From Verrucomicrobiia bacterium (GTDB taxonomy: Bacteria; Verrucomicrobiota; Verrucomicrobiia; Limisphaerales; UBA8199): 64,000 nucleotides of DNA. The notes under the pieces are model-generated. The model was not told where the DNA came from, did not search any database, and worked only from the letters and a program-made list of their open reading frames with translations. Positions 4,744 through 62,778 of this stretch are shown here, piece by piece; position 1 is the stretch's first letter; the number at the start of each line of letters is the position of its first letter. The stretch lies in NCBI GenBank assembly GCA_035651635.1, contig DASRFK010000152.1, positions 19,505 to 83,504 on the forward strand. The letters run 5' to 3'. A program made the translations under genes and the position numbers.

Positions 4744-5186
4744 GCGCGAATTAAAACGTAGAGGGCATGGAATCGAGGAACATGTAGAGCACTGCAATTT
4801 TGCCATCGTGAACGATGATTACATCCAAGCCAGTGTAGTCGGGTGCCTCGCCGCGCGGGCCCGAACCCCAGGCGAGGCGACCGGCGGCATTCTGGAGAGC
4901 CTGAGGCTGGTCGTGGGCAAGAAACCAAATGGGAAATGTCAGATCATTTCGTCTTCGGTTTCGAAACTAGGAAGACTCGCATGCTTGCGAGCTTTCCGTT
5001 TTCGATCGTGAAGATAGCGTCCTGTCGGAGGGATGGATCGCTGAGGTATTCATAATTCTCCCTGAACCGCACCACTTGGTACGCCGGAGGCGAATAAGAA
5101 TGTTCGCTTGAGCTTGTCATGTCCTGAGCCATCACTTGTGTTGCCAATGACATGAAAAGCACAAAGAAGCCTGTCGACAGCTTCAT
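4744..5186 (-). pseudogene. patch of gene fragments: alginate-export-type porin N-terminus followed by NTF2/SnoaL-like C-terminal pieces
   Basis: ORF 4944..5186 has a signal peptide plus YQVVRFRENYEYLSDPSLRQD, matching YKMVRFDEDYSCLTNPANRSD of the porin at 38712..40115. It then switches to AIFTIENGKLASMRVF. A second start-less frame (4744..~4940) reads ..PDYTGLDVIIVHDGKIAVLYMFLDS, which is typical of an NTF2-like C-terminus. Confidence 0.35.
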
Positions 5187-36265: not shown

Positions 36266-38143
36266 TCAGAAAGCGAAGCAGTCGCAGCCCGATCCGAAGA
36301 AGCCGGCATAGCGATTGCGAGCGGCCTCGATGCCCGCGAGAAGTTGATGGCCCGCATGGACGCAGCCATGATGATGGCATTTGGCATCGTGCTGATGCTG
36401 CGGCATCGGTACACCTGCTCGCGCAGCCTTGCGAACGTCCAACGGCGCGCCGTAACCGCCGAACACCTTCACCGGCGACCATTCCGGCAAAACCGGAATT
36501 GGGGGTGGCGTGTGCGAAGCGAATTCCTCGGTCGCGTGAACGATCTTTCCATCAACAATCGTAAGCACGGACTCAATGCTCTTGATCTGCTCCTCGGGCA
36601 CTGACAGATAGTCGTCAGTGAGCACAACCAGGTCCGCCAATTGCCCCGGAGCAAGCGCGCCTTTCTTGCCGCTTTCGCCGGAAAACCAACTGCTGCCTTT
36701 GGTGTAAAGCATCAACGCTTCTTCCCGGCTCAGACAATTTGCCTCGGAATAGAGCGCAGCGCCGCCAACGGTTTTCCCGGCCACGAGCCAGAACAGGGAA
36801 AGCCAGGGGTTGTAGCTGGCCACGCGTGTTGCATCTGTGCCCGCCCCCACGGGAATGCCCAAATCGAGCATTCTCCGAACTGGCGGCGTCCGTTCCGCAG
36901 CCTTACTGCCATAGCGATCCAGAAAGTACTCTCCTTGGAAGGCCATGCGGTCCTGGATCGCAATCCCGCCTCCCAACGCTTTGACTCGTTCGAGGCTGCG
37001 GTCCGAGATGGTTTCGCAATGATCGAAGAACCAATTGGTTCCTTTGAAAGGGATTTCACGATTGACCTCCTCGAACACGTTTAACATCCGGGAGATGCTT
37101 TCGTCATAGGTGGCGTGAATACGGAACGGCCATCTATTTGTAGCCAAGAGCGAAACGACCTCCTTCAAGTCCTTTTCCAGGTTGGACGGAAGGTCGGGCC
37201 GGGGTTCCAGGAAATCCTCGAAATCTGCCGCCGAATAAACCAGCATTTCTCCCGCCCCATTGCAGCGATAGAAATCGTCGCCCTTGCCCGGCTTCGTCAG
37301 TTTCATGCAACGCAGGAAATCATCCTTCTCCTGGTTGGGTTTTTGCGTGAAAATATTATAAGCCATGCGAACGGTCATCTCTCCTCGCTCGTGCAGTTCT
37401 TCGATGATCGCATAGTCGTCCGGGTAGATTTGAGAGCCGCCGCCCGCGTCCACCAAGCTGGTGAGGCCAAGGCGGTTGAGCTCGCGCATGAAATGGCGGG
37501 AAGAGTTCATCTGCTGTTCAGGCGGCAGCTTGGGTTGCTTGCCGACGGTAGCGTAAAGAATTCCGGCATTGGGGCGGGCGATGAGGAGTCCGGTGGGGTT
37601 GCCTTTTCCGTCGCGCTGGATTTCACCCGCCGGTGGATTGGGAGTGTCTTTGGTGTAGCCGCAGGCCCGCAGCGCGGCTTTGTTCAACATGCCGCGGCAA
37701 TACAAGTGCAGGATGAAGACAGGCGTTTCGGGGGAGACGGCGTTGATTTCATCAAGCGTGGGCATACGCCGTTCGGCGAATTGGAACTCGCTCCAACCGC
37801 CGATGACGCGGACCCATTGGCCGGGCGGTGTCCGCTGCGCCTGCTCTTTGAGCATGCGCAAACCGTCCGCGAGGGAGGGAACACCGTCCCAGCGAAGCTC
37901 GAGGTTGTAGCTAAGGCCCCCGCGGATGATATGCATGTGGGAATCGTTGAGTCCGGGAATCACGCGCCGACCTTGTAAATCGATGACCTTCGTGTTCGGT
38001 CCTCGTTGATATTCCTCAGCGTCGTCCACGCCAACGATACGTCCGTCTTTGATGGCAAGATTACTTGCTTCGCGGTTTTTCGCATCTAGCGTGGTGATGC
38101 GTCCGTTGCGGAGTATGAGATCGGGAACAAGTGATGTATTCAT
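36266..38143 (-). CDS. metal-dependent amidohydrolase (Amidohydro_3/YtcJ-like) with Cys/His-rich C-terminal tail
   Basis: Start MNTSLVPDLILRNGRITTLD (ATGA overlap with the upstream gene). PGLNDSHMHIIRGG, IHATYDESI, GAGTDATRV. Tail HQHDAKCHHHGCVHAGH..GSGCDCFAF. Confidence 0.8.
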   Translation of the reverse strand: MNTSLVPDLILRNGRITTLDAKNREASNLAIKDGRIVGVDDAEEYQRGPNTKVIDLQGRRVIPGLNDSHMHIIRGGLSYNLELRWDGVPSLADGLRMLKEQAQRTPPGQWVRVIGGWSEFQFAERRMPTLDEINAVSPETPVFILHLYCRGMLNKAALRACGYTKDTPNPPAGEIQRDGKGNPTGLLIARPNAGILYATVGKQPKLPPEQQMNSSRHFMRELNRLGLTSLVDAGGGSQIYPDDYAIIEELHERGEMTVRMAYNIFTQKPNQEKDDFLRCMKLTKPGKGDDFYRCNGAGEMLVYSAADFEDFLEPRPDLPSNLEKDLKEVVSLLATNRWPFRIHATYDESISRMLNVFEEVNREIPFKGTNWFFDHCETISDRSLERVKALGGGIAIQDRMAFQGEYFLDRYGSKAAERTPPVRRMLDLGIPVGAGTDATRVASYNPWLSLFWLVAGKTVGGAALYSEANCLSREEALMLYTKGSSWFSGESGKKGALAPGQLADLVVLTDDYLSVPEEQIKSIESVLTIVDGKIVHATEEFASHTPPPIPVLPEWSPVKVFGGYGAPLDVRKAARAGVPMPQHQHDAKCHHHGCVHAGHQLLAGIEAARNRYAGFFGSGCDCFAF

Positions 38144-38709
38144 ATAGATGTCCTTTCTTTTTCGGAATGTAACCAACCTTGGAGGGCTCTCGTGATAAGT
38201 GGCATGACGACCCACGTCAGGAGCGCCACCACGAAGGCGTTGAAGACAATGTTGTTCAGGAGAAAATTCCAATTGTGAAGCAAGCGACCGAGCGTCAATG
38301 CCAGGAGCATGACCACTGGAACTACTCCGAGGTAAGTTGCGATTGCCATTTTCCACCGGGGTGGAGGCGCATGGTTGTTCTGGCGAAAGAACGCTTCGAG
38401 GCCGTGGAGTTCGCGAGCCTCAGGCTCGCCGTCCGAGAGCGGGGCCACTCGCTTTTTCCAGTCGAGGTATAATGGCGAAGCATAGAAGGCATCCCGCTCA
38501 GCCGCATTGGCAAACGAGCGAAGGATTCCATATTCCGTCGAGCTTGAGCCAGGTGGCGGAACCAGCATGGCCGCGCCCTGCACGCCACGGCGAGTCAGGG
38601 AGTGGGCAAAAAATTCCTTTAACGCGGCTTGGAACTCCTGCTCGTAGCCAGGCTTGATACGCCGGGTTATGGCAACGTGAATGGGTTGTGGACCAGCGCT
38701 CGCAATCAT
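38140..38709 (-). CDS. ABM-like (antibiotic biosynthesis monooxygenase fold) domain fused to two C-terminal TM helices
   Basis: Start MIASAGPQPIHVAITRRIKPGYEQEFQ. ..PPPRWKMAIATYLGVVPVV... Paralog at 50780..51301. Confidence 0.6.
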   Translation of the reverse strand: MIASAGPQPIHVAITRRIKPGYEQEFQAALKEFFAHSLTRRGVQGAAMLVPPPGSSSTEYGILRSFANAAERDAFYASPLYLDWKKRVAPLSDGEPEARELHGLEAFFRQNNHAPPPRWKMAIATYLGVVPVVMLLALTLGRLLHNWNFLLNNIVFNAFVVALLTWVVMPLITRALQGWLHSEKERTSI

Positions 38710-38711
38710 AT

Positions 38712-40115
38712 TCAGAACAGAAAACTGATTGTTGCTGAGACGTAATCGACGTCCTTGCCGCCGGCTTCGTGAACATAGGTCCCGGTGAGGAAATGGACGT
38801 AAGAGGCCTGGACAGTAATATGGCGTTGAAGCTGCCACGTTACGTTCGCGTCCAGGGCTGTGCCGACATAACTAGGCGAGTCGCTCCGCGCCGGGATCGC
38901 CACGAACCCAGGCACCCCATAAACCGCATCGTGTCGGGAATACCTCCAAAACCAGTTAGCGCCTCCGTCAATCGTCAGGGTCTTGGTCGGCTTAACGCTG
39001 AGGTTCGGATGGACGCCAATAATGTTCTGTGGTCGGATGAGGCTGGCGTCGTTGAAATACCCCGATTTGAAGTAGAGCGCGTCGAAAGTTTCCAGTTGTC
39101 CATCCTTTTGGTCATGGTCGCCGCTGGTGATTCCCGTCTTGAGCCCTAGTCTTGGCTGCCAGGTTGCATCGAACGTGTAACCACCATCAATTGCCGCTGT
39201 CCACGCCAGAATCGAATCACGTCCGAAGCTTCCCACCTGCAGGACTTGCTCCGCGTCCCAATCCCAATGATGCCAGGCGCCGAACTCTCGTGCGCCAAAC
39301 GAATGCCTAAGTTCGTCCCCCGAACCGGAGGCGTAAGTGGCATGTTCGTTGCGAATGCCGAAGTAGTAGAGATCCAAACCCGCGCTGTGCGGGGCGTCAA
39401 AGTAATGCGTAGCGTAAAGCCCCCAAAACGTGGTTGAATGATCCTCCGCGTCAATATGGCCCGAATCCTTAACGGGCCGCGTCAGAAAAGCGGTGAAATT
39501 CCAAAATGGCCGCGAGTAAAGCGCCTCAAGTCCGTCAAATCGGAATGGAATGTTTGGAGCGGAGCGTGTTGCAACGAGTCGTCCTGCGCCGAAACTCATG
39601 CCGAAGCGTCCCACCCGCAACGTAAGACGCTCGTCGTCCGTCAGGTAGGGGACGACATCAACAAACGCGAACTGCAGATCGATGGGGTTCTGCTGAACGG
39701 GGGGAGGTGGATGGGACTCGCCTGCAACGATCCCGGAGATACCCTCGGCGAAGAAGCGGACTCGCTCCCCTAAATGCACATCGGTCAGCAGCGTGACGCG
39801 TTGCAACAAATAGGAGTCGGGGCCCAAGCCATGGATTCCAAAATTAGGATCGTAATTACCCTCGAAGCGTTCCCGTAACTCACCCCCAAGGCTCACATAC
39901 CATAAAGGGTCGTCCTCTCGAAGAGGGATATATTTGGCGAGGTCAAACCAATCCGAGCGGTTGGCCGGGTTCGTCAAACAGGAATAATCCTCGTCAAATC
40001 GCACCATTTTGTAAGTAGGGGATTGCAAGGGAATTTCCGCGCCCGGCTTCAATTCCTGAGCCGATAGAACCACCGGCATCACGGCGAATACGGAAATGAG
40101 CAGGGCGGGACGCAT
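38712..40115 (-). CDS. alginate-export-family (AlgE-like) outer-membrane beta-barrel porin
   Basis: 467 aa. Signal peptide, SLGGELRERFEGNYD, alternating aromatic/hydrophilic strands, C-terminal ..ATISFLF. Confidence 0.7.
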   Translation of the reverse strand: MRPALLISVFAVMPVVLSAQELKPGAEIPLQSPTYKMVRFDEDYSCLTNPANRSDWFDLAKYIPLREDDPLWYVSLGGELRERFEGNYDPNFGIHGLGPDSYLLQRVTLLTDVHLGERVRFFAEGISGIVAGESHPPPPVQQNPIDLQFAFVDVVPYLTDDERLTLRVGRFGMSFGAGRLVATRSAPNIPFRFDGLEALYSRPFWNFTAFLTRPVKDSGHIDAEDHSTTFWGLYATHYFDAPHSAGLDLYYFGIRNEHATYASGSGDELRHSFGAREFGAWHHWDWDAEQVLQVGSFGRDSILAWTAAIDGGYTFDATWQPRLGLKTGITSGDHDQKDGQLETFDALYFKSGYFNDASLIRPQNIIGVHPNLSVKPTKTLTIDGGANWFWRYSRHDAVYGVPGFVAIPARSDSPSYVGTALDANVTWQLQRHITVQASYVHFLTGTYVHEAGGKDVDYVSATISFLF

Positions 40116-40118
40116 CGT

Positions 40119-40850
40119 TCATTTTGCGAGAGATGCGAAAGGGGTTGTGTCCCTTTTCTGCAGTTCTACGGTTGCCGAATCAATGCCTTGGCCCACCTGC
40201 TTCACGGCCTCATCGAAAAAGGACGGTCCAGCTTCAATCACCACTGATTCGATGCTGAATTTTGGGGCAAGGCCCTGCGCCTGGAGACGTTTCTCGGTGT
40301 CGTAGGCTTCAAGCATCTCCTCGGCAAAGGCGCGATCGCCCTCTCCCACATCAATCGCAGTGTTGCCTTCGTCCCGGATGACCGGTGCCCAGGCAACGTG
40401 CTTTGCTTTGAGCCGGACGGCTTCGCGTGCCGCAATGCGTCCGACGATTCGCAGCGTGTCGAGCGACAAGTCATTTTCCTCGCCCAGGCCAATCACCATG
40501 AACTGCCTCGCGGGGATTGAACCCTTGGGAGGGTTCAATAGGAATGTTTCGCCCGTTTCACCTGCAAACTCTCCGCGATTGCGCAACGAGGAGAGAATGC
40601 CGCCAAGCTTTTCGTCCGTTTCCTTGGCAGCGCCCTGGTAGGTGTCGCCGGTCTGTTTATGTTTGAAAAGGCAGATGATTTGGAGGTCTGTTGGCTCCAT
40701 ATATGGGCCGACCATTTTGATGGAAAGCGTGATGCCAAGTGGTTTGGCGGGAAAAACGTTTTCCTTTGGCGTGGTCGTGGTGTCGGCAGCCGAGGCGTTG
40801 ATCACCAGTCCGGCGCAGACGACGCTGAAAAAATGAAATTTGTTTTTCAT
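40119..40850 (-). CDS. secreted protein of unknown function (possible peptidase-M17 N-terminal-like fold)
   Basis: 243 aa. Signal peptide MKNKFHFFSVVCAGLVINASA. FMVIGLGEENDLSLDTLRIVGRIAAREAVRLKAKHVAWAP loosely recalls the LAP N-terminal domain. Confidence 0.3.
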   Translation of the reverse strand: MKNKFHFFSVVCAGLVINASAADTTTTPKENVFPAKPLGITLSIKMVGPYMEPTDLQIICLFKHKQTGDTYQGAAKETDEKLGGILSSLRNRGEFAGETGETFLLNPPKGSIPARQFMVIGLGEENDLSLDTLRIVGRIAAREAVRLKAKHVAWAPVIRDEGNTAIDVGEGDRAFAEEMLEAYDTEKRLQAQGLAPKFSIESVVIEAGPSFFDEAVKQVGQGIDSATVELQKRDTTPFASLAK

Positions 40851-40917
40851 ACGAAAAATGAAAGCAACAGGAGTTACGAAGACTTAACTCCGTTAACTCC
40901 TGTTTAACTTGGTGGTT

Positions 40918-41640
40918 TCAGTGAGCGGCGACAGGAGTCATGCCGCGATTCGAAGTGTGTCCGTCGCCGGTAACTTTCTTTGGCACGATCTGTGGCTTTT
41001 GAGCGGTTTGGGGTGCGTGGTGGACCATCGTATAGGCGTATTCAACGCCAACGCCGTAAGCGCCCGCTTGGGGTCGGAGGAGTTTCATAAGCGCGTCGTA
41101 ATGCTCCTTGTTCTTCCAATCGCGCTGCCATTCAAGTAAGGCGCCAATCGTGGTCAACCGCACTGCGCCGGCTTGCACCATGCGCGAAAGGGCCGCCTCT
41201 TGTGCGTCAGGTGAAGTCGCACCACAGCAATCCTGAACGACATAAACGTTATAACCTGCTCCGAGCATTTCGATCGTAGGCCAGGTGACGCAAACCTCGG
41301 TCCAGAGGCCGGTCATGATGATGTTCTTGCGCCCGGTGGCCTCGATGGCTTTGCGGAACTCCATTGAGTCCCACGAGTTCATCGAGCTGCGTTCAATCAC
41401 AGGTTGGCCCGGAAAAATGTCCAACAACTGCGGCCAGACATAACCGCTGAAGGATTCGGTCTCCACAGAAGTGAGCACTGTGGGCACCTTGAATTCCTTG
41501 GCGACTTTAGCCAACAAGGTTACGTTGTTGATCATCGTGGCGCGATCTGCGTTGGCAACGCCGAAGAGCATCTGCGGCTGAAAGTCGATGAATACAATTG
41601 CAGAATCTTCGGGCGTGTAGGGTCTGTGGTATTGATTCAT
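40918..41640 (-). CDS. isochorismatase-family hydrolase (full-length paralog of 281..784)
   Basis: 240 aa. IVFIDFQPQM, IIMTGLWTEVCVTWPTIEMLGAGYNVYVVQDCCGA. Confidence 0.85.
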   Translation of the reverse strand: MNQYHRPYTPEDSAIVFIDFQPQMLFGVANADRATMINNVTLLAKVAKEFKVPTVLTSVETESFSGYVWPQLLDIFPGQPVIERSSMNSWDSMEFRKAIEATGRKNIIMTGLWTEVCVTWPTIEMLGAGYNVYVVQDCCGATSPDAQEAALSRMVQAGAVRLTTIGALLEWQRDWKNKEHYDALMKLLRPQAGAYGVGVEYAYTMVHHAPQTAQKPQIVPKKVTGDGHTSNRGMTPVAAH

Positions 41641-41641
41641 A

Positions 41642-41833
41642 TTACGTTTCCTTTCTTTTTGTTTTTATTTGTTTGAATGTTAGTTGAGGTCGAACAACAG
41701 AAAATGCGCGTCCCTTTCGGACGCAAAATGAGGCTTCCTTTACTTCATCGGTTGACACTCCGTCGCCGGGGGAAAGCTTTTCGCCATTCACGTCCAAATC
41801 TCCTTCGATGAGTTGAATCCATGCGTGTTCCAT
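41642..41833 (-). pseudogene. pirin-family C-terminal stub
   Basis: MEHAWIQLIEGDLDVNGEKLSPGDGVSTDEV matches the pirin/YhhW C-terminal pattern (R.AW.Q...G...vNG..L..GDG). The ORF-track N-terminus (41834..41884) is a translation of the conserved promoter-cassette leader, so it is unlikely to be coding. Confidence 0.4.
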
Positions 41834-41888
41834 TGTTTTACTGAGGCTTGTCGGCAATTCTCCAACGCCCCTAGGTCTGATCACCGAA

Positions 41889-42016
41889 TGCTAGAGCCAT
41901 GCCACAGCGTGGAATGGCCGCAATTAGCGCGATTCACCCAGAAAGCCTCGTGCCTGAGAGGTTTTTTACGAACCATTAACTCGCGACTCTTCAAGAATTC
42001 GCGAAGTTTCACGAAA
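41889..42016 (-). promoter_or_regulatory. type I sigma-54 promoter cassette (upstream TCGCGA boxes + -24/-12) facing the isochorismatase-porin-amidohydrolase operon
   Basis: Minus-strand TGGCATggctcTAGCA at 41889..41904 (GG-N10-GC). TCGCGA/TCACGA boxes at 41981..42014, ~90 bp upstream. The whole segment is colinear with the cassettes at 42923.., 61561.. and 62651... Confidence 0.7.
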
Positions 42017-42086
42017 TTGGGGGCGGTCATGCCGCGTGCTTTCAACTCCGGCAGCGTCGCTTGCAGGGTTGGTGCTGTGGGCAAGT

Positions 42087-42102
42087 TGGTACAACTCTAG
42101 CG
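42087..42102 (+). promoter_or_regulatory. sigma-54-like promoter facing the opposite way from the same upstream boxes
   Basis: TGGTACaactcTAGCG; 15 of 17 identical to the cassette promoter TTGGCACAACTCTAGCA at 62651..62666. GG-N10-GC is preserved, but the -24 C is changed to T. Confidence 0.45.
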
Positions 42103-42117
42103 AGGGGATGGTCTATT

Positions 42118-42873
42118 ATGAGCACTTCATCTAATGGTATTGATCAGCCACCTGAAATGCGTGATAACGATTTTTTCACAGACATCCCGAGTGGTCACAA
42201 GTTGCCCTTGGGTTGGGTAGAGTGCGCTTGGCAGCCCGAGGTCACCACCAAACAGCAAGCGCTCTGCAACGAACCAGGCCGCCTCGTGGCGACAAACGGA
42301 GGAACCCCTGCGATGGCCTACAAGAAAGGATTTACTCGTCGGCGTGGAACCATGAAGGCGATTATTTTCTACGACGATGTCGCCTCCGCAGCCAGAGCGG
42401 TCGTTATACTACGCCGTTGCATGTCTTTGGCCAGAGGCGGTGCCCGATGGGATATCAAGCCATGGTGTGTCGGGGTTCTGAAATTGCCCTTGGCCGCCGA
42501 CGAGGCGCTTATTGAATCGATTGATGCCGACGTAATCGTGTTTGCAGCTCTTCGTGCGCCTACACTCCCCAAATCTCTCAAGGAATGGCTGCAATGGTGG
42601 AATCTTCGCCGTCAGTCAAGGGAACCGGCCGTTGTGATTACTCGCGCATATTATGATGCCAGGCGCAGCGGATTTGATCATGAATTGCTGAGTTTTGCCG
42701 CACAAAATGAGCTGGACTTGATCGTTGAAGCGAACCCGCCAGTTGGGGATCGTCTGGCCGATGAGCTCGTCCAACCCAAAATGTCGCTTCCGCAGGCCGC
42801 CATGGATGAAGCAACGATGGGTGCGGCCGTTACGCCCCATTATTCATATCGAAATTGGGGCATTAACGAGTGA
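42118..42873 (+). CDS. hypothetical protein
   Basis: ORF with GAGGGGA 9 nt before the ATG at 42118. Alternative start MKAIIFYDDVASAARAV at 42352. I recognise no domain. Confidence 0.5.
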   Translation: MSTSSNGIDQPPEMRDNDFFTDIPSGHKLPLGWVECAWQPEVTTKQQALCNEPGRLVATNGGTPAMAYKKGFTRRRGTMKAIIFYDDVASAARAVVILRRCMSLARGGARWDIKPWCVGVLKLPLAADEALIESIDADVIVFAALRAPTLPKSLKEWLQWWNLRRQSREPAVVITRAYYDARRSGFDHELLSFAAQNELDLIVEANPPVGDRLADELVQPKMSLPQAAMDEATMGAAVTPHYSYRNWGINE

Positions 42874-42922
42874 CGTTTCACGACCTCCTTAGGAATTCTG
42901 TGTGAGGGGATTCGCTAGGAAC

Positions 42923-43049
42923 TTTTTCGCGAAAGTCGCGAATTCTCGAAGGTTCGAGAGTGATCTCGCCAACGTTCGTTTCAGGCATTGGGCGTTTTTG
43001 GCTGAATTTAGCCGATTTCCTGCAACTCCATGTTGGCACAGCTCTAGCA
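42923..43049 (+). promoter_or_regulatory. type I sigma-54 promoter cassette
   Basis: TTTTTCGCGAAAGTCGCGAATTCTCGAAGG at 42923..42952. TGGCACagctcTAGCA at 43034..43049. The conserved leader CCCAGAGGCGTTGGGAGAGTTCAACAGGCCTTAAAGAAG follows. Confidence 0.75.
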
Positions 43050-43146
43050 TTAGGGAGCTGCACCCAGAGGCGTTGGGAGAGTTCAACAGGCCTTAAAGAA
43101 GTGAAAAGACGAGCACCAAAACTCGGGCACCGCGACCGGTACCAAA

Positions 43147-43353
43147 ATGAAAATGGCAAAAGTGCTCCTGGTTTGCTTGGAAATAGTAGCCGCGTTTGTT
43201 ACGCCGCTAGATGTTCGAGGCGACGATCTGCTGTTGCAGTCGCTAAGTCCTTGCGGTTGGTTTATCAAAGCCAACCACCTGCGGTCCTGCTCTGGCAACC
43301 AAATTGCCGAAAAAAGTCGATTTGCTAACCCGGCCACAAAAGCAGCGAAATGA
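43147..43353 (+). CDS. small hypothetical protein (68 aa)
   Basis: First ORF after the cassette leader. Its TGA overlaps the ATG of the next gene (ATGA), which suggests translational coupling. Confidence 0.4.
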   Translation: MKMAKVLLVCLEIVAAFVTPLDVRGDDLLLQSLSPCGWFIKANHLRSCSGNQIAEKSRFANPATKAAK

Positions 43354-43658
43354 AAGGGATCACTAAGACCACAATGCGAACAAAAATCGTAAAAACTGCA
43401 ACGATAATTGATCTGGATGGGGGCGCCCAACTCGAATTAAGAAGGCGTATTGAACAACGCGCCTACGATCTCTGGGTCGAAGGCGGTCGGCCCGATGGCT
43501 TGGCACTAAGCCATTGGCTTCAAGCTGAGCGGGAGCTCTCTGCCCAGGCAGCTCCTTCCGCTACACGGGAGAGTCCGCGCGCTAATGGTGCAACGAAGGC
43601 AAAAATTAATACCAAGCCGTCCGCGAATTCTCTCCTGGAGCAGGGACCCGCCATTTGA
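43350..43658 (+). CDS. DUF2934-family protein
   Basis: RRRIEQRAYDLWVEGGRPDGLALSHWLQAEREL is the DUF2934 signature. Confidence 0.75.
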   Translation: MKGITKTTMRTKIVKTATIIDLDGGAQLELRRRIEQRAYDLWVEGGRPDGLALSHWLQAERELSAQAAPSATRESPRANGATKAKINTKPSANSLLEQGPAI

Positions 43659-43739
43659 TCGAAAAGCGCCAAAGCTCCTGGATCGAGGCCCACATCAGAA
43701 TTGTTCCAGAACCAATTATGGTTCCGGGCATGTGATTGG

Positions 43740-44534: not shown

Positions 44535-46619
44535 ATGGACAAGGATACTTCATTTAAACACAAAGTGGCCCTTGTGACGAGTGGCACTTGCGGAATTGGC
44601 GCAGCCGCAGCCCTGGCGCTGGGCCGGGTGGGAGCGAAAGTGGTTGTAGCCGGCCGGGGCGAAAGCGAGGGCCAGGCGGTGCTGGATGCCATCAAAAAGT
44701 CCGGCGGCGAAGGGACGTTAGTCAAAAAGGATGTCGGCCGTGAGGTCGATGTGAAGGCGATGGTGGACCGGACCGTGGCGGCGTTCAGTCGTTTCGATTT
44801 TGGCTTTAAGCAAGGAATCCGCGTGAACGCCGTGGCCTTCGGCACGGTAGAAATGGGGGTTCTCATCTGGAATTTCGAAGGTGAGATTGTCGAGGCCAAT
44901 GATTCGTTTCTGAAAATGGTGCAATACGACCGTGAAGACCTCGTCAAAGGTCGCGTGCGTTGGACAGATCTGACACCTGCCGAATGGCGTGATCGCGATG
45001 CACGCGCCTTAAACGACTTAAAGAAGGCGGGCACCGCCCAGCCGTATGAGAAAGAGTTCTTGGGGAAACAAGGCAACCGGGTACCGGTGCTAGTCGGTGG
45101 CGCATTGTTCCAGAAAGGAGGAAACGAGGGTGTAGCTTTCGTGTTCGATCTCACAGAACAAAAGTGCGCCGAGAAGGCCTTGCGGCGAAGCGAAGCCTAT
45201 TTGGCTGAATCACAAAAATTGAGCCACACGGGAAGCTGTGGCTGGAATGTTTCCAACGGAGAACTTTTCTGGTCGGAGGAAACTTACCGAATTGTGGGTA
45301 TCGCTCCAACCACCAAGCCGACGCTCGAGTTGGTATGGCAAATCGTCCATCCAGAAGACCGCGACATAGTGCAGCGGGCAATAGATGACGCCGCGAGAAT
45401 CAGTGCAGACATAGATTCAGAGCACCGTATTGTGATGTCTGATGGGTCATTTAAGGATGTCCACCTTGTCATGCACGCAGTCAAGAACCAAAACGGCAAT
45501 CTCGAGTACATCGGTGCGCTGACGGACGTGACCGCGACGAAAAATGCGTTCCGGCAGATTGAAGGATTGAAAGATCAGCTCCAAAGAGAGAATGTGGCGC
45601 TCCGCGAAGAGGTTGATGCAGCGTCCATGTTCGAGGAAATTATCGGCACTTCGGCTCCGTTAAGGGCGGTGTTGTCTCGCATCTCCAAGGTCGCCCCCAC
45701 CGATTCCACCGTTTTGATCACTGGCGAGACCGGCACGGGTAAGGAGCTAATCGCCCGGGCCATCCATAAACGGTCCGCGCGTGCGGGGCAGGCCTTTGTC
45801 AGCGTGAATTGCGCAGCTATACCACCTTCTCTAATCCATTCGGAATTGTTCGGCCACGAAAGGGGTGCTTTCACCGGAGCAATGCAACGGAAACTTGGCC
45901 GCTTCGAACTGGCGCGGGGAGGCACCTTTTTTCTCGACGAGGTCGGTGAGCTCACAGCGGAGACGCAAGTCGCGTTATTACGGGTATTGCAGGAAAATGA
46001 ATTCGAGCGGGTAGGCGGAACACAGCCTATCCGAGCGGACGTGCGGCTGATCGCAGCGACAAATCGCGACCTCAAGGAGGCAATTGCGTCCGGCGCATTT
46101 CGCAGCGACTTGTTCTACCGGCTGAACGTTTTTCCGATCGAAGTGCCGCCCCTGCGCGAGCGCAAAGAAGATATCCCGATTTTAACCGAGTATTTTATTC
46201 ACCGTTTCGCCGGCCGCATGGGGAAGAGACTCTCGGGTATCGGCCGGAAGACATTGGAGTTATTTCAATCCTACCGTTGGCCCGGCAACATTAGGGAACT
46301 GCAAAACGTCGTGGAGAGATCCGTCATCGTTTGCGAGACCGAAACGTTCTCAGTAGATGAAAGCTGGCTCGCGCGACAAGGCCCGCCGACCGAAACCACT
46401 GTCCGTCCGCTGTCTCAGAGGCTTGCGACAGACGAAAGGGCATTGATCGAAGGCGCCATGGCTGAAACACACGGCAGAGTTTCCGGCCCAGCCGGCGCGG
46501 CGGTAAAGCTCGGCATACCAGCCTCCACACTGGAATCGAAAATCCGAGCGCTCAGAATTAACAAACACCAGTTCAAGCTCGCGGCATATCCCGGACCGCT
46601 TTCATATCCTCTCACCTGA
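44535..46619 (+). CDS. sigma-54-dependent enhancer-binding protein (2 PAS + AAA+ + Fis-type HTH) with an in-frame SDR remnant at the N-terminus
   Basis: AAA+ core VLITGETGTGKELIARAIH, GAFTGA (GAFTGA loop), FLDEVGEL, RVGG, RLIAATNRDL, FRSDLFYRLNVFPI, WPGNIRELQN. C-terminal HTH AAVKLGIPASTLESKIRAL. Residues 1-106 look like an SDR with its catalytic core deleted. Alternative start at 44853. Confidence 0.9.
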   Translation: MDKDTSFKHKVALVTSGTCGIGAAAALALGRVGAKVVVAGRGESEGQAVLDAIKKSGGEGTLVKKDVGREVDVKAMVDRTVAAFSRFDFGFKQGIRVNAVAFGTVEMGVLIWNFEGEIVEANDSFLKMVQYDREDLVKGRVRWTDLTPAEWRDRDARALNDLKKAGTAQPYEKEFLGKQGNRVPVLVGGALFQKGGNEGVAFVFDLTEQKCAEKALRRSEAYLAESQKLSHTGSCGWNVSNGELFWSEETYRIVGIAPTTKPTLELVWQIVHPEDRDIVQRAIDDAARISADIDSEHRIVMSDGSFKDVHLVMHAVKNQNGNLEYIGALTDVTATKNAFRQIEGLKDQLQRENVALREEVDAASMFEEIIGTSAPLRAVLSRISKVAPTDSTVLITGETGTGKELIARAIHKRSARAGQAFVSVNCAAIPPSLIHSELFGHERGAFTGAMQRKLGRFELARGGTFFLDEVGELTAETQVALLRVLQENEFERVGGTQPIRADVRLIAATNRDLKEAIASGAFRSDLFYRLNVFPIEVPPLRERKEDIPILTEYFIHRFAGRMGKRLSGIGRKTLELFQSYRWPGNIRELQNVVERSVIVCETETFSVDESWLARQGPPTETTVRPLSQRLATDERALIEGAMAETHGRVSGPAGAAVKLGIPASTLESKIRALRINKHQFKLAAYPGPLSYPLT

Positions 46620-46636: not shown

Positions 46637-46838
46637 ATTCGCGAAGTTTCGCGATTTAACGATTTTCGCGATTTTAATTCCGTCGCTTCGAGATAATTCG
46701 CGCCAGTTCCCAGCACCGCTCTTGTGGCTGTCTTCCAAAATCATAGTGAAATCGCAGGAAAAAAGGCCAGCTCCATTGAATTAACGGAACAATTCCAAGG
46801 CGAAGGCTCTCTTCGACCAGATTGGCACTGTTCTAGCA
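46637..46838 (+). promoter_or_regulatory. type II sigma-54 promoter region (three TCGCGA boxes + -24/-12)
   Basis: ATTCGCGAAGTTTCGCGATTTAACGATTTTCGCGATTTT at 46637..46675. TGGCACtgttcTAGCA at 46823..46838. About 140 nt upstream of the 2Fe-2S subunit gene. Confidence 0.75.
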
Positions 46839-46979: not shown

Positions 46980-47534
46980 ATGAACGAGAGCAAAACAGAA
47001 GAAAGGCAAGGCGACTGGCGCGTGCATTTGAGCATGATGGTCAACGGTGCGCTTCGCTCATTAAAAGTCGAGCCGCGTATGACACTGCTGGATGCATTAC
47101 GTGAGGAATTGGGTCTGACTGGTCCAAAGAAATCATGCGACCGCGGCGAGTGCGGAGCATGTACGGTGCACATCGAAGGCCGGCGCATTCTTTCTTGTAT
47201 GACTCTGGCGGTGATGCACGAAGGAAAGCAGATCACCACTATAGAAGGGTTGGAGAGGGAAGGTCGGCTCCACCCGCTTCAGGAGGCATTCATCGAGCAT
47301 GATGGATTTCAATGTGGCTTCTGCACCTCGGGCCAAATCATGTCGGGGGTGGCGATGATCCAAGAGGCAAAAGCAGGTTGGCCGAGTGCTGCCACACCGG
47401 ACGTTACCAAGCCCTTCACGACGGCCGATCTTTCCGAAGCCGAAATTCGTGAGCGCATGAGCGGTAATCTTTGTCGCTGCTCTTGCTATCCCAACATCGT
47501 TGATGCCGTGGTTGACGCGACGCGAGGGAGTTGA
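46980..47534 (+). CDS. molybdenum hydroxylase small subunit, (2Fe-2S)-binding (PaoA/CoxS/YagT-like)
   Basis: CDRGECGACTV, GFQCGFCTSGQIMS, LCRCSCYPNI. No Tat signal seen. Confidence 0.9.
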   Translation: MNESKTEERQGDWRVHLSMMVNGALRSLKVEPRMTLLDALREELGLTGPKKSCDRGECGACTVHIEGRRILSCMTLAVMHEGKQITTIEGLEREGRLHPLQEAFIEHDGFQCGFCTSGQIMSGVAMIQEAKAGWPSAATPDVTKPFTTADLSEAEIRERMSGNLCRCSCYPNIVDAVVDATRGS

Positions 47535-47537
47535 ACG

Positions 47538-48533
47538 ATGCATCCTTTTACCTATTCCAGAGCGGCGGATCCGGCCGCAGCAATTGCTGCGCACGCTCAA
47601 GATCCTCGCCTCGCATTCATTGCGGGCGGAACCGATCTGCTCGGCCTGATGAAAGACCGCGAGGCGATTCCCGATCGCCTCTTGGACATCAATGGTTTGC
47701 CTCATATGGCGCGCATCGAAGTATTACGCGATGGCGGCGTGCGGATCGGAGCATTGGCTCGAATGAGTGATGTGGCCGCTGATGAAGAGATTCGCCGTCG
47801 ATTCCCGGTGATCGCCGAAAGCTTGTTGTTCGCCGCATCCGGCCAGCTTCGAAACATGGCGTCAATGGGCGGCAACATCATGCAGCGCACGCGTTGTGCC
47901 TACTTCCGCGACGAAGATGACCTTCCTTGCAACAAAAGGAAACCGGGTTCCGGCTGCGCCGCCCGGTATGGTCTCAATCGGCTTCACGCGATCTTTGGAT
48001 GGTCTGACGAATGCGTCGCTACACATCCGTCGGACTTGGCAGTAGCACTTTCGGCCCTGGACGCAGAAGTCGTGGTTCGCGGGCGGAACGGCGATCGGAC
48101 GATTTCGTTCACTGAATTTCATCGCTTGCCGGGGAACACACCGAACCGTGACAACGTGCTTGATCGCGGAGATCTAATTGTGGCGATTGAAGTGCCCCAT
48201 AGGATCGAGGGTCGCGCATCGCATTACCTCAAGCTTCGTGATCGGGAGTCCTACGAGTTCGCTCTGGTATCTGCCGCGGTCGCAGTCGCCACCAATGGTT
48301 CGCGGATCGGATCGGTGCGGCTCGCGATGGGCGGTGTCGCACATAAACCTTGGCGGCTGACCGCGGCCGAATCGGCCCTGCGGGGTGTATCGCTCGATGA
48401 TGTCCAGGCACTCAGAACAGCGATCGCCACGTCGTTTGTAGACGCTCGCCCGCTCGCACACAATTCCTTTAAGATTGAGCTTGCTCAGCGCGTCGCACTC
48501 CGCGCGGTGCAAATCGCAGGAGCACGCGCATGA
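47538..48533 (+). CDS. molybdenum hydroxylase FAD-binding subunit (PaoB/CoxM/YagS-like)
   Basis: 331 aa. FIAGGTDLLGLMK, ASMGGNIMQRTRC, CxxxxC insert typical of the YagS type. Confidence 0.85.
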   Translation: MHPFTYSRAADPAAAIAAHAQDPRLAFIAGGTDLLGLMKDREAIPDRLLDINGLPHMARIEVLRDGGVRIGALARMSDVAADEEIRRRFPVIAESLLFAASGQLRNMASMGGNIMQRTRCAYFRDEDDLPCNKRKPGSGCAARYGLNRLHAIFGWSDECVATHPSDLAVALSALDAEVVVRGRNGDRTISFTEFHRLPGNTPNRDNVLDRGDLIVAIEVPHRIEGRASHYLKLRDRESYEFALVSAAVAVATNGSRIGSVRLAMGGVAHKPWRLTAAESALRGVSLDDVQALRTAIATSFVDARPLAHNSFKIELAQRVALRAVQIAGARA

Positions 48534-50737
48534 ATGCAGTCGGACAACCTCTCTCACGTTTCGACGGACGCCTTAAGGTGACTGGCGCAGCACGCTATAC
48601 AGCAGACATTTCGATTCAAGGCGCGGTTCACGCCTCGTTTGTCTCAAGTTCGATAGCTCACGGCCGGACAACTGCGATCGACACCACTGCCGCCGAAAAA
48701 GCTCCTGGCGTGCTCGCCGTATTCACGCATCGCAATATGCTGCTCATGAATCCGACACCAAAACCTTGGAGTCACCTACATCCGCACGGGCAGTCGTATC
48801 TGCCCCTTCAGGACGACAAAATCCTATACGCTGACCAGCCGATTGCTTTGGTTGTCGCCGGAACGCTTGCCCAGGCAGCCTATGCCGGCACGTTGGTCAG
48901 GACTGATTACGAAGTTCAGCCCCCAGTGGTGTTCGGTTCGCAGACGCTGAAGGACGCCGTTCAGCCTCCGCAATTCCTGTGGCCCGTCTCCTCGTCAGTC
49001 GGAAATGCCGATGCCGCAATTTCGGCGAGCCCTGTTAGAATGAAGCAGACTTACAGCACTTCAGATCGCCACCACAATCAAATGGAACCGCACGCAACGA
49101 CTGCGATTTGGGATGGCGACGGCACATTGACGCTGTATGAAACGACCCAGCACATCTTTGGTTGTCGGGATCTGGTGTCGATCGTGCTCGGCATACCACC
49201 GGAAAAGATTAATGTCGTGTCGCAGTTCCTCGGCGGAGGTTTCGGCGGCAAGGCTTACGTGTGGCCGCACACCCTGCTGACGATTCTCGCCGCAAAGGTG
49301 CTTAGGCGGCCGGTGCGCTTCCAGCTCACACGCGCGCAAATGTATTCAATGGCGGGCCACCAGGCCGCGAGTGTGCAGACAATCGCGCTGGGCGCCACTA
49401 TCGAAGGCAGGCTGAACGGCATCCGCCACGACAGCATTTCGCCGACCGCCGTGTCCGACAACTACATCGAGTATGCGGCCCTTTGCGCGCGCTCCCTGTG
49501 GAGCGCCACTGGCGGCATCGCCACAAATCATAAAATCGTCCACGTCAACCGAAACACTCCGACAGCGCTCCGGGCCCCGCATGAGGCGCTCGGACATTTT
49601 GCGCTCGAAAGCGCGATGGACGAACTCGCGTATGCCACTGGTGTCGATCCGGTTCAGTTGCGCATGCTCAACGATACTGAGGTCGATCCAGACACCGGTC
49701 GTCCTTTCTCTTCGCGTGCTATGCGTAGGTGTCTGATAGATGGAGCGGCGAGATTCGGCTGGGAAAAGCGGACACCCGAGCCGGGCTCAATGCGCCGCGG
49801 TCGTTACCTTCTTGGGCAAGGCATGGCAGGCGCAATCTACACCCATTGGCGCTGGCCTGGACGTGCGCGAGTCACGCTGAACAGAGATGGTTCAGCGTTG
49901 GTTGAGTTGGGGACGCATGAGATAGGTACCGGCACCTACACCGTAATGCAGCAAGTCGCTGCTGACGCGCTTGGACTGCCGTCGCAAAAAGTGACCGTGC
50001 GGATTGGTGACGCCAGGTTACCACAGTCGCACGCAAGTATCGGCTCAGCTACAATGGCTAACGCCGGCGCGTCCGTTATGCTGGCGGCAAAGGCCGCGCG
50101 TGACAAAGCAATCGAGCTGGCTTGCTCCGGGCGTGGCGCGCTTTTCGGTGACGCCAATATTGACGACGTAATCGTTAGAGATGGCAGGCTTGTGCATGCG
50201 AAAAAGAACCTGGAAGTCACCTATGTCGATCTGCTGGCGCGGAACAACCTTCCTTCACTGACGGGCGATGGAAACTACGAGCCAAGCCCCGAAGGAGCGA
50301 AGGCGGTTTTTAGCTTTTCTGCGGTGTTCGCCGAAGTAATCGTCGATCCCGACTTCGGTGTCGTGCGCCTGAGCAGATTTGTCGGAGCTTACGACTGCGG
50401 CCAGGTCATCAATCCAAAGACAGCGCGCAGCCAAGCCATCGGAGGAATAATTTGGGGTATCGGACAAGCCCTGCTTGAACAGTCCGAAACTGACCCCGCG
50501 CTGGGTCGATTTCTTCACCGAAACTATTCCGGCTACCTCGTGCCGACTTCGGCAGATGTTCCAAAGCTCGACGTTGTCTTCGTTGGACAGTTCGACGAGG
50601 AAGCAAGCCCAATAGGGGCCAAGGGCTTGGGCGAACTTACTGCGGTATCAGTTGCGCCAGCAATCGCTAATGCCGTCTATCATGCCACCGGCAAGCGCGT
50701 GCGCGATCTGCCGATCACGATCGAGAAGCTACTGTGA
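48530..50737 (+). CDS. molybdenum hydroxylase large subunit, molybdopterin-binding (PaoC/CoxL/YagR-like)
   Basis: 735 aa. GKARYTAD-type start (VTGAARYTADI), QMEPH, GGGFGGK, HEIGTGTYT, IGAKGLGE. Overlaps the upstream gene by 4 nt. Confidence 0.9.
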   Translation: MNAVGQPLSRFDGRLKVTGAARYTADISIQGAVHASFVSSSIAHGRTTAIDTTAAEKAPGVLAVFTHRNMLLMNPTPKPWSHLHPHGQSYLPLQDDKILYADQPIALVVAGTLAQAAYAGTLVRTDYEVQPPVVFGSQTLKDAVQPPQFLWPVSSSVGNADAAISASPVRMKQTYSTSDRHHNQMEPHATTAIWDGDGTLTLYETTQHIFGCRDLVSIVLGIPPEKINVVSQFLGGGFGGKAYVWPHTLLTILAAKVLRRPVRFQLTRAQMYSMAGHQAASVQTIALGATIEGRLNGIRHDSISPTAVSDNYIEYAALCARSLWSATGGIATNHKIVHVNRNTPTALRAPHEALGHFALESAMDELAYATGVDPVQLRMLNDTEVDPDTGRPFSSRAMRRCLIDGAARFGWEKRTPEPGSMRRGRYLLGQGMAGAIYTHWRWPGRARVTLNRDGSALVELGTHEIGTGTYTVMQQVAADALGLPSQKVTVRIGDARLPQSHASIGSATMANAGASVMLAAKAARDKAIELACSGRGALFGDANIDDVIVRDGRLVHAKKNLEVTYVDLLARNNLPSLTGDGNYEPSPEGAKAVFSFSAVFAEVIVDPDFGVVRLSRFVGAYDCGQVINPKTARSQAIGGIIWGIGQALLEQSETDPALGRFLHRNYSGYLVPTSADVPKLDVVFVGQFDEEASPIGAKGLGELTAVSVAPAIANAVYHATGKRVRDLPITIEKLL

Positions 50738-51545: not shown

Positions 51546-52670
51546 GTGAAAGAACTCGCCGCTATTCTCAGCATTTGCTCGCTCCACCCGGAGAACGCGC
51601 TGGCGCTGGCAACATTGGTCAAGGCTTCCGGTTCCACTTACCGCCGTCCGGGCGCGCGGATGTTGATATTGGAAGATGGCGGGTCGGCTGGCTCCGTCAG
51701 CGGCGGCTGTCTGGAGCGCGATTTAATCGAGAAGGGGCAGGTTGCCGCCCGGAAGGGGGAAAGCATCCTGGTGACGTACGACACTTCGGCGGAGGAGGAC
51801 ATCATTTTTGGCGTGGGCCTGGGATGCAAGGGGGCGGTGCATATTCTGGTGGAACCGCTGCGGCCCGGTTCGGCGGCGGAGGAATTGATTTGCTTCATCG
51901 GAAATATTTTCCACCGACGGCATTCCGGCGCGGTAGCGACGATCTTTCAAATCCGAGGCCATGTTCAAGTCCGGTTGGGTGACCGATGGATGTTGGACTC
52001 GGATGGCAAAGTGTCGGGACGCGTGGATGACGAAGTTCTGCGTGCCAAAATAAACGCCGCCACGGTTGAAGCACTTTCGTCGAACCGTTCAAGGACAATG
52101 GAATTCGAACTGCCCGGCGGCGAGGTCGAAGTATTTGTGGAGGTGATGCACCCTCCGGCACCAATGGTGGTTTTTGGGGCTGGATACGACGCGCATCCCC
52201 TGGTTCGCCTAGCCAAGGAGGTTGGCTTTCATGTGACCGTGGCGGATGCCCGTCCGGCTTATGCGCAGGCTGTTCGGTTTCCGGAGGCAGACTCCGTGGT
52301 GGTGGTCCGGCCGGAGGAAATTGCCACGCTCGGGCTAAACCAGCGCACTGCGGTCGTCATCATGTCGCACAATTTTTTGACGGATTTGGGTTTTCTCCAA
52401 GCCGTGCTGCCGCTGAATTTGCGCTACCTGGGTTTGATGGGGCCAAGGGAGCGCACCCTCAAAATGTTGCAGGAATTGCAAGAGGCGGGATTGGAGACGA
52501 GCGAGGATCTGCTGCGAAAAATTCACAATCCGGTCGGTCTGGACATCGGGGCGGAGAACCCGGAACAAATCGCGCTGTCGATTCTCGCGGAAATCCAGGC
52601 TGTTATCACTGGTCGCCCCGGGGGTTTGCTGCGGGAAAAAAAGGGGCCGATCCATGCGCCAACCCACTAA
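51546..52670 (+). CDS. XdhC/CoxI-family molybdenum-hydroxylase maturation factor
   Basis: GTG start. ALATLVKASGSTYRRPGARMLI..GSVSGGCLE..VVFGAGYDAHPL. Confidence 0.85.
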   Translation: MKELAAILSICSLHPENALALATLVKASGSTYRRPGARMLILEDGGSAGSVSGGCLERDLIEKGQVAARKGESILVTYDTSAEEDIIFGVGLGCKGAVHILVEPLRPGSAAEELICFIGNIFHRRHSGAVATIFQIRGHVQVRLGDRWMLDSDGKVSGRVDDEVLRAKINAATVEALSSNRSRTMEFELPGGEVEVFVEVMHPPAPMVVFGAGYDAHPLVRLAKEVGFHVTVADARPAYAQAVRFPEADSVVVVRPEEIATLGLNQRTAVVIMSHNFLTDLGFLQAVLPLNLRYLGLMGPRERTLKMLQELQEAGLETSEDLLRKIHNPVGLDIGAENPEQIALSILAEIQAVITGRPGGLLREKKGPIHAPTH

Positions 52671-53597: not shown

Positions 53598-53789
53598 TTC
53601 GCGATTTCGCGATTTTCGCGATTTTAATTTCAGCGCTTCGAGATCAATTCACGTCGGTTCCAGCACCGCTGTTGCGAGCTTTCTTTCAAAATGCCCTTGA
53701 ATTGGCGGAGAAAACTCCCAGTTCCATTAGGTTAACGGGCGAATTTCAAGGCGAAAACTTCCTTCGATCAGGTTGGCATGGGTCTAGCA
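53598..53789 (+). promoter_or_regulatory. type II sigma-54 promoter region
   Basis: TTCGCGATTTCGCGATTTTCGCGATTTT at 53598..53625. TGGCATgggtcTAGCA at 53774..53789. Colinear with 46637..46838. Confidence 0.7.
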
Positions 53790-61413: not shown

Positions 61414-61560
61414 ACTCTGGTTTTCCAGTTTTTTGGTTTAATTACATCCGTGAACACATTCTGTTTGAACTATTCCGTCCACTGTTGTTTTGAACGATTC
61501 GTCTTTTTGCTTCTTTAAGCCTTTGTGAATTTCCCGACGCCTCTGGGTCTAGTTCGCTGA

Positions 61561-61687
61561 TGCTAGACCCGTGCCAAAGCGGAGCTGCAGGGAATCAGAT
61601 GGATCAGCCTGAAAAATCCAATGCCTGAGAAGCGCTTCGTGAGTCAACTTGCGATACTTCGAGGATTCGCGACGTTTCGCAAAAAAG
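61561..61687 (-). promoter_or_regulatory. type I sigma-54 promoter cassette
   Basis: Minus-strand TGGCACgggtcTAGCA at 61561..61576. Boxes (minus strand) TTTTTGCGAAACGTCGCGAATCCTCGAAG at 61657..61686. Confidence 0.75.
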
Positions 61688-62506: not shown

Positions 62507-62650
62507 ACCTCGTTTTCAAGTTTTTGGCTTTAGTTACATCAGTCAACACATGTTTTCTAAACTGTTTCGTCGATTATTGTTTTGCACCATTCGTCTCTTC
62601 CCTTCTGAGGCTTTGTGAATTTACCAACGCCTCTGGGTTTAGTTCGCTGA

Positions 62651-62778
62651 TGCTAGAGTTGTGCCAAGTGGAGTTGCAGAAAATCTGCCATATCAGCCTG
62701 AAAAAAACCAAATGCCTGAGACGAGCTTCGTAAGTTAACTTGCGAAGCTTCGAGAATTCGCGACGTTTCGCGAAAAAG
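62651..62778 (-). promoter_or_regulatory. type I sigma-54 promoter cassette
   Basis: Minus-strand TGGCACaactcTAGCA at 62651..62666. Boxes (minus strand) CTTTTTCGCGAAACGTCGCGAATTCTCGAAG at 62748..62778. Confidence 0.75.

Follow-up and report, generated by a model that had tools for sequence, protein, structure and literature searches.

The interval at 41905-42086 of a 64-kb stretch of DNA from a Verrucomicrobiia bacterium (contig DASRFK010000152.1; the whole stretch is hereafter called the window) is probably a bidirectional sigma-54 control region, in which one array of short boxes would serve two divergent promoters, likely via the enhancer-binding protein (EBP) encoded at 44535-46619. This 182-bp interval is bounded by two outward-facing promoters of the sigma-54 type, one beginning at 41904 on the minus strand and the other at 42087 on the plus strand. 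Against 7 such promoters the window has 6 box arrays; only that at 41981-42015 has a promoter on either side, so that the divergent pair shares a single array. The result is a testable map of sigma-54 control in an uncultured and poorly studied soil Verrucomicrobia lineage, which holds a lineage-specific -12 element (CTCTAGCA), an enhancer motif in the form of TTCGCGAA-like boxes set in arrays, a candidate activator and a symmetric enhancer positioned to fire both ways. Since this architecture is already known in enterobacteria, the value of the map lies in annotation and regulon reconstruction and not in a new principle.

Two outward-facing promoters and the array between them

A generic sigma-54 promoter reads TGGCAC-N5-TTGCW and has EBP sites at about -80 to -150. 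The plus-strand promoter, TGGTACAACTCTAGC (42087-42101, +), faces a gene of 251 codons at 42118-42873, hereafter the plus gene, and the minus-strand promoter, TGGCATGGCTCTAGCA (41889-41904, -), faces a series of hydrolase and porin genes. The spacing from GG to GC is 10 nt both in TGGTACAACTCTAGC and in the minus-strand promoter (TGGCATGGCTCTAGC). With the transcription start site (TSS) placed 12 nt after the C of GC (PMC4591121), starts are predicted near 42113 and 41878, respectively. Set against the extended consensus, the minus-strand promoter reads TGGCAT..TAGCA and the plus-strand promoter TGGTAC..TAGCG. The likeness to sigma-54 systems in general lies in the 10-nt separation of GG and GC, TGGCAC at -24, palindromic sites approximately 115-120 nt upstream of the predicted TSSs and a GAFTGA EBP nearby. 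The differences are TGGTAC at the plus-strand site and the -12 region of the lineage, which is CTCTAGCA and not TTTGCA (TAGC, not TTGC) in all of the approximately 25 promoters seen. We infer that both promoters probably depend on sigma-54 and an EBP.

Such sites are in clear excess. The pattern TGGYAYN5TWGC has 8 matches in the window against 0.73 expected, and none of 100 shuffles reached 8. A position weight matrix, trained on 20 distinct promoters of this type that came from related contigs and from the window but did not include the plus-strand site, gives 21.0-30.9 bits to seven intergenic sites in the window and 12.9 bits to the best remaining position (128 kb, counting both strands). 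The minus-strand promoter scores 27.4 bits and the plus-strand promoter 21.0. The latter is identical to its minus-strand neighbour at 11 of 15 positions and to the closest cassette promoter, TGGCACAACTCTAGC (62652-62666), at 14 of 15; a match at 15 of 17 positions to the cassette promoter, reported in an earlier sequence-only reading of this DNA, could not be reproduced.

We gathered homologues of the plus gene from a protein database and from metagenome contigs (loci L001, L002 and so on). Upstream of these homologues, TGGCA[CT]GACT[CT]TAGC is found in L001, L002/3, L006, L007, L011, L012, L013, L014, L019, L021 and L022, the last with a variant that has GAGTT in the spacer. Most of the loci with enough upstream DNA thus carry the promoter, in surroundings that have otherwise diverged, and the promoter-bearing loci have a box array 140-210 nt upstream. 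In L008 and L020 the exact pattern was not matched upstream of the homologue, and a profile scan of genome contigs by protein alignment gave one partial match, in L004 (Candidatus Angelobacter), without an upstream region. Judged by score and conservation, the plus-strand site clearly belongs to the promoter class of the lineage. The proposal of a divergent pair of sigma-54-type promoters is therefore upheld, with one member that belongs to a cassette and another that scores 21.0 bits and is kept upstream of homologues.

The minus-strand promoter is, by alignment, a member of a repeated array-promoter-leader cassette, which we call type A. From array to leader it aligns with 8 other cassettes at a mean column identity of 71%, and the homology, approximately 190 nt long, is shared by the window sites at 41904 (-), 43034 (+), 61576 (-) and 62666 (-) and by sites in L002, L011, L014, L018 and L022. 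The order is a four-box array, a T-rich spacer, the promoter and a leader of approximately 45 nt, and the distance from the GAATTC dyad to TGG is 88-93 nt in single type-A cassettes. The leader (5' untranslated region) of the minus-strand promoter, at 41834-41888 (-), has the motif ..ggcgttgg.a.aatt.c...agcct.., which is kept between cassette copies. More broadly, the type-A leader (..a.cccagaggcgttgg.a.aattcacaaagcct.a..) is kept across copies and contigs, in the window at 41834-41888 (-), 43049-43100 (+), 61510-61561 (-) and 62600-62651 (-). An Rfam search of 41500-43700 gave a sole match at chance level (E=0.93) and no family for the leader.

Between the two promoters, the sequence attaaCTCGCGActcTTCAAGAATTCGCGAAgtTTCACGAAattgg contains the putative enhancer (upstream activating sequence) at 41978-42017, assigned to neither strand and composed of four TTCGCGAA-like boxes (array 41981-42015). 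It is the sole array between the promoters. The boxes lie 9-10 bp apart (TCGCGA at 41981, TTCAAGAA at 41990, TTCGCGAA at 41998 and TTCACGAA at 42008), and perfect TCGCGA sites are present at two positions, 41981 and 41999. The array is palindromic, with 20-nt arms at 41981-42000 and 41995-42014 that are 75% complementary and a dyad at GAATTC (41995-42000). The sequence-only reading had one TCGCGA site feeding both promoters; the shared central position stands, but what is shared is a palindromic array of four boxes and not a single site. In addition, the box region had been placed at 41996-42016, off by one, given that the quoted string GAATTCGCGAAGTTTCACGAAA is 22 nt long and occupies 41995-42016. 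The same four-box architecture is present in every type-A cassette. Clusters of at least 2 boxes within 20 nt number 6 in the window compared to 0.76 in shuffles (maximum 3), and all of them are followed, 90-190 nt downstream, by one of the seven promoters. By contrast, boxes counted singly, with at most 1 mismatch, show no enrichment (60 matches versus 54 expected).

The dyad is centred at 41997.5, which puts it 93.5 nt from the first T of the minus-side TGG and 89.5 nt from that of the plus-side TGG. The sequence-only reading had given approximately 90 and 80 bp, respectively, counted from the box region. The corresponding distances to the predicted TSSs are approximately 119.5 and 115.5 nt. 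The dyad symmetry, together with the location of both promoters at the cassette distance (approximately 90 nt to TGG and 115-120 nt to the TSS), means that one array could serve both directions.

The layout recurs in two other loci. In L011 the minus promoter is at 1958-1972 and the plus promoter at 2209, on either side of one array (dyad 2064.5) at distances of 92.5 and 144.5 nt; in L022 the minus promoter is at 217-231, the single array has its dyad at 320.5 and the plus promoter is at 531, with distances of 89.5 and 210.5 nt. Exactly one box cluster is thus present between the divergent promoters in the window, L011 and L022. An alignment of the intergenic regions of the window and L011 has three conserved islands, which are the minus promoter, the array (identical at 34 of 37 positions around GAATTC) and the plus promoter, whose upstream flank TGTG(G/A)GCA is also kept; the plus-side spacer is approximately 50 nt shorter in the window. 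The genes on the minus side are different in each locus, being a pirin stub and hydrolases in the window, a conserved 40-aa open reading frame (ORF) followed by a gene resembling Zn-dependent ADH in L011, and a membrane protein gene in L022. The plus gene is therefore the constant partner, and the cassette that adjoins it is, on this comparison, modular.

The small ORF of L011 (1783-1905, -; approximately 40 aa) follows the cassette promoter and encodes MQVFIP(G/S)GGF(A/S)ASPRPE..ALLTQEQVQIT(L/F)ANRQNYFR. It reappears as an apparent C-terminal extension of the protein P0008 (L019, approximately 4800-4930); because a promoter is located at 4739 in L019, this extension seems to be gene-calling read-through across a cassette.

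The candidate activator and comparison with known systems

The sole EBP gene in the window is at 44535-46619 (+), with matches to Sigma54_activat (Pfam, E=3.6e-71) and HTH_8, and tblastn with its product found no second EBP in the window. The protein has a truncated N-terminus resembling a short-chain dehydrogenase (SDR), PAS domains, an AAA+ domain with GAFTGA and a Fis-type helix-turn-helix (HTH). Its best NCBIfam match is FhlA, at 379 bits versus a cutoff of 830, and only residues 337-679 (AAA+ and HTH) align. With a score this far below the cutoff, the protein is FhlA-like and not an FhlA orthologue; in line with this, its N-terminus consists of PAS domains and the SDR remnant and does not have the formate-sensing domain expected of an FhlA orthologue. 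The EBP orthologue in L001 is 69% identical over residues 366-686, HTH included, and in both L001 and L021 the EBP orthologue is immediately followed by the array and promoter that precede the plus-gene orthologue. The FhlA site CATTTCGTACGAAATG, as listed in PMC4987338, has a TTTCG half-site in common with the window boxes TTTCGCGAAA and TTTCACGAAA, a likeness that is suggestive only.

The first 90 or so residues of the EBP (44535-44850) match only the first 79 of 195 adh_short positions, followed by an SDR motif like 'IRVNAVAFG' and then PAS, so that the N-terminus looks like a fused remnant of an SDR gene or the product of a mis-called start. SDR-like sequence (49-56% identical to EBP residues 4-93) is also found just downstream of the plus-gene homologue in L012, L014, L004 and L008. 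Approximately 0.5 kb downstream of the homologue in L002 (7383-7532) and L003 (4408-4557, +), a stretch that is 64% identical to the EBP HTH (residues 632-681), without an adjoining AAA+ domain, may be what is left of an EBP gene or may encode an HTH protein in its own right.

In the mechanism that we propose, EBP dimers, for which the FhlA-like PAS protein encoded at 44535-46619 is the likeliest candidate, would bind the four-box array at 41981-42015 and assemble into an ATPase ring (hexamer). Via DNA looping, this ring would remodel closed complexes of RNA polymerase and sigma-54 at either promoter, and the two promoters could use the array simultaneously or in competition. The expected outcome is co-induction, to the left of hydrolases and a porin and to the right of the plus gene, which travels with the EBP in other genomes. 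The plus-strand transcript would start approximately 5 nt before the ATG at 42118, implying either near-leaderless translation or a start at the ATG at 42157.

Two divergent pairs in E. coli and Salmonella are closest in layout. The hycA-hypA promoters are described as FhlA-dependent and divergent (Lutz et al. 1990, as cited in PMC3844500), and both are activated by one EBP, FhlA, according to the table in PMC4987338. Their motif centres in E. coli are 128 bp apart (2848502, - and 2848630, +). The likeness to the window lies in the outward-facing sigma-54 pair, in FhlA as the best family match of the window EBP and in the shared TTTCG half-site. The targets differ, being hydrolases, a porin and a protein of unknown function and not hydrogenase genes; moreover, the window box core TTTCGCGAAA is 2 bp shorter between half-sites than the FhlA site, and the window has four boxes in one symmetric array. 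The hyc/hyp region has separate FhlA sites for each direction and an IHF site. The zraP-zraSR pair is likewise reported as divergent and ZraR-dependent (Leonhartsberger et al. 2001, as cited in PMC4987338), with motif centres 154 bp apart (4199755, - and 4199909, +), compared to approximately 197 bp in the window. The product of one arm of the zra pair, ZraP, modulates the EBP system, which can be compared with a speculative role of the plus gene and suggests, by analogy only, that this gene may feed back on the EBP. However, ZraR is a two-component response regulator encoded on one arm, whereas the EBP gene of the window is on the plus side at a distance of 1.7 kb, with another cassette in between. 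With hycA/hypA and zraP/zraS both present in E. coli, the layout is less unusual than the sequence-only reading implied when it called it uncommon.

The plus gene, its start and competing explanations

The protein encoded by the plus gene has a fast-evolving N-terminal extension with the motif LPLxWxECxWxPEV, a predicted flavodoxin-like core and the C-terminal motif SYRNWGINE. Neither Pfam nor NCBIfam contains a matching family, and a profile search of PDB sequences gave nothing below E=0.7. In the AlphaFold model (mean pLDDT 51.6) only core residues 79-204 are modelled, as (beta-alpha)5, and Foldseek against the PDB returns weak flavodoxin-like matches (TM 0.3-0.37, best E=9e-4), too weak for us to assign a function. 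The link to the regulon is the only functional handle on this family so far. The family C-terminus, (S/F)YRNWGINE followed by the stop codon, is strongly conserved (42847-42873 in the window), and the plus gene is the sole window ORF ending in G[IVL][NDE]E; the motif could be a tag or an interaction motif.

Where translation starts bears directly on the plus-strand promoter. In 8 loci the reading frame continues open upstream of 42352, where it encodes LPLxW(T/V)(D/E)CxWxPEV. Nucleotide variation in this motif falls mainly at third codon positions (entropy summed by codon position 8.8, 6.4 and 14.3), and in L011 and L019 the LPLxW motif is encoded in a separate small ORF. Outside the motif the extension evolves fast; over the first 78 codons, the differences between the window and L001 number 20, 21 and 22 by codon position, an uninformative spread. 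Since the extension is coding, translation in the window does not begin at 42352, which had been entertained as the real start. The MST start at 42118 is homologous in the window, L001, L021, L022 and L002, and is MPT in L006 and VRT in L007. From the GC element to the ATG there are 16, 16, 15 and 16 nt in the window, L001, L021 and L022, respectively; the spacer sequences have diverged, and those of L001, L021 and L022 have no motif resembling a Shine-Dalgarno (SD) sequence. In the window, a G directly follows TGGTACAACTCTAGC and the 16 nt between promoter and ATG are gaggggatggtctatt; they include GAGGGGA at 42102-42108, at a distance of 9 nt from the ATG yet ahead of the predicted TSS. The earlier caveat about the ribosome-binding site thus holds, with a leader of approximately 5 nt to 42118 or one of 44 nt without SD to the alternative ATG at 42157 (Met14).

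The other loci point in both directions on this choice. In L022 (562-606), a 1-nt insertion breaks the MST frame relative to the window, L001 and L021 and leaves the Met14 frame intact, and L002 has Ile at the Met14 position. Either a mistake in the assembly or a true move to the Met14 start could explain the insertion; at the same locus the LPLxW motif is degenerate (LPLSRTKCAWEPEV). SD cores of at least 4 nt precede 19 of 45 window genes, and with SD motifs this infrequent their absence is no strong objection. From the sequence comparison, the plus gene may start at either 42118 or 42157. The less ordinary feature of the locus is, in these alignments, the conserved and very short distance from the plus-strand promoter to the start, and a possibly leaderless sigma-54 transcript is the one element that a specialist might find unexpected; literature searches on leaderless sigma-54 transcripts and on sigma-54 in Verrucomicrobia returned no directly relevant precedent. 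More speculatively, a near-leaderless sigma-54 mRNA may have been kept over this divergence, with the plus product acting as a feedback modulator of the EBP (compare HycA/FhlA and ZraP/ZraSR) and the locus as a node of a lineage regulon built from the approximately 190-nt cassette in front of unrelated genes; taken together, we regard this combination as doubtful.

A number of observations weigh against a bidirectional control region with a shared array. The plus-strand site scores lowest of the seven window promoters, with T in place of C after GG and G in place of A after GC. A separate array 140-190 nt upstream accompanies the plus gene at most of the other loci, so that sharing could be a by-product of deletions and not a selected design. 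No IHF consensus was found between the array and either promoter, where the only feature of note is a T6 tract at 41962-41967. The 64-kb window does not contain rpoN, and the actual binder of the array could be another EBP encoded elsewhere in the genome. Finally, the predicted leader of approximately 5 nt excludes GAGGGGA and compares with shortest predicted TSS-to-start distances of 20-21 nt in an E. coli chromatin immunoprecipitation sequencing (ChIP-seq) table. One alternative would be that both promoters are real but that only the minus-strand promoter uses the central array, with the plus-strand promoter activated from elsewhere (e.g., the array at 42926-42950, approximately 0.8 kb downstream), activated by EBP from solution, or silent. 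The fixed 88-93-nt spacing that makes the array integral to every copy of the minus-type cassette, the separate direct-repeat arrays that usually accompany plus-gene homologues and the low score of the plus-strand site all fit this. On the other hand, a palindromic array has no intrinsic direction, the plus-strand promoter is at the cassette distance (89.5 nt), L011 and L022 are also without a second array between their divergent promoters, and the plus-strand promoter is kept in the window/L011 alignment despite the loss of 50 nt of spacer. One-sided use of the array is for these reasons unlikely in our view. Alternatively, the plus-strand site might be a decaying relic and the plus gene expressed from an unrecognised upstream promoter, giving an mRNA that includes GAGGGGA. 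A scan of 41600-43200 for sigma-70-like sites found none, compared to 1.2 expected, and the 15-16-nt spacing from GC to ATG is kept in L001, L021 and L022 across diverged spacers without SD-like motifs. The two departures from the lineage consensus, the position of GAGGGGA just before the ATG and a 5-nt leader that is unusual for sigma-54 promoters would all be accounted for by decay, but GGT at the -24 element is present among the sites bound by E. coli sigma-54 (ChIP-seq table) and the window makes weak use of SD motifs in general, so we hold a relic to be distinctly unlikely.

The boxes themselves might bind some other protein (a globally acting repressor or a nucleoid-associated protein, for example), or merely ride in a duplicated cassette, with the EBP binding elsewhere. 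It is true that the single box is not enriched, and that the boxes travel with the approximately 190-nt module, such that some of their conservation could reflect common descent. Clusters, however, occur only upstream of sigma-54-type promoters (the 6 against 0.76 given above), at the 90-190 nt that is the usual enhancer range, and are associated with three otherwise unrelated promoter families (type A, the type-B promoters at 46823 and 53774 described below, and the plus-gene promoters); the half-site, moreover, resembles that of FhlA, the nearest named relative of the EBP. A role unconnected with the EBP thus appears very unlikely. The last alternative, that the plus-strand match is a chance GG-N10-GC motif, is effectively refuted by its retention at orthologous positions in more than 10 contigs and by the absence of any position reaching 13 bits outside the seven intergenic sites. 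Short promoter-like motifs do arise by chance, and the eighth match to the pattern (39338-39352, +; TGGCATGTTCGTTGC), antisense inside the porin gene, is probably one of them: it fits the generic pattern only, the lineage matrix gives it less than 8 bits, and it lacks a box array.

Flanking genes and a second cassette type

To the left, the first ORF after the minus-strand promoter (41642-41833, -; 63 aa) is a remnant of a pirin C-terminal cupin, with a match to Pirin_C_2 (E=2.4e-7) that covers only profile positions 37-72 of 86. By profile matches, it is followed by genes for an isochorismatase-family hydrolase (40918-41640, -), a Peptidase_M17_N-like protein (40119-40850, -), an Alginate_exp porin (38712-40115, -) and an Amidohydro_3 enzyme (36266-38356, -). 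Orientation and short gaps suggest that the genes at 36266-41640 may form one operon. Just beyond the segment of the stub ORF that is homologous to pirin, and ahead of the isochorismatase gene, there is a terminator-like hairpin (41707-41725, -), with a 7-bp stem followed by CATTTTCTGT. A functional terminator at this site would lessen read-through from the minus-strand promoter, but the folding of the hairpin is chance-like (z=-0.32 versus shuffles) and we rejected it. To the right, another cassette promoter at 43034 (+) and small ORFs, including one for a DUF2934 protein, lie between the plus gene and the EBP gene.

Two further cassettes, which we call type B, are present at 46823-46837 (+) and 53774-53788 (+) and have a conserved upstream sequence of their own. 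Their box arrays are direct repeats (TTCGCGATTT, three times) at 46638-46672 and 53598-53622, 160-185 nt upstream. The copy at 46823 precedes a xanthine-dehydrogenase-like operon (Fer2, FAD and MoCo; 46980-50737), with XdhC at 51546-52670. The copy at 53774 precedes genes for an enoyl-CoA hydratase and HlyD-type efflux proteins (53778 onward); the annotated ATG at 53778 falls inside the promoter motif, so that the real start is probably further downstream.

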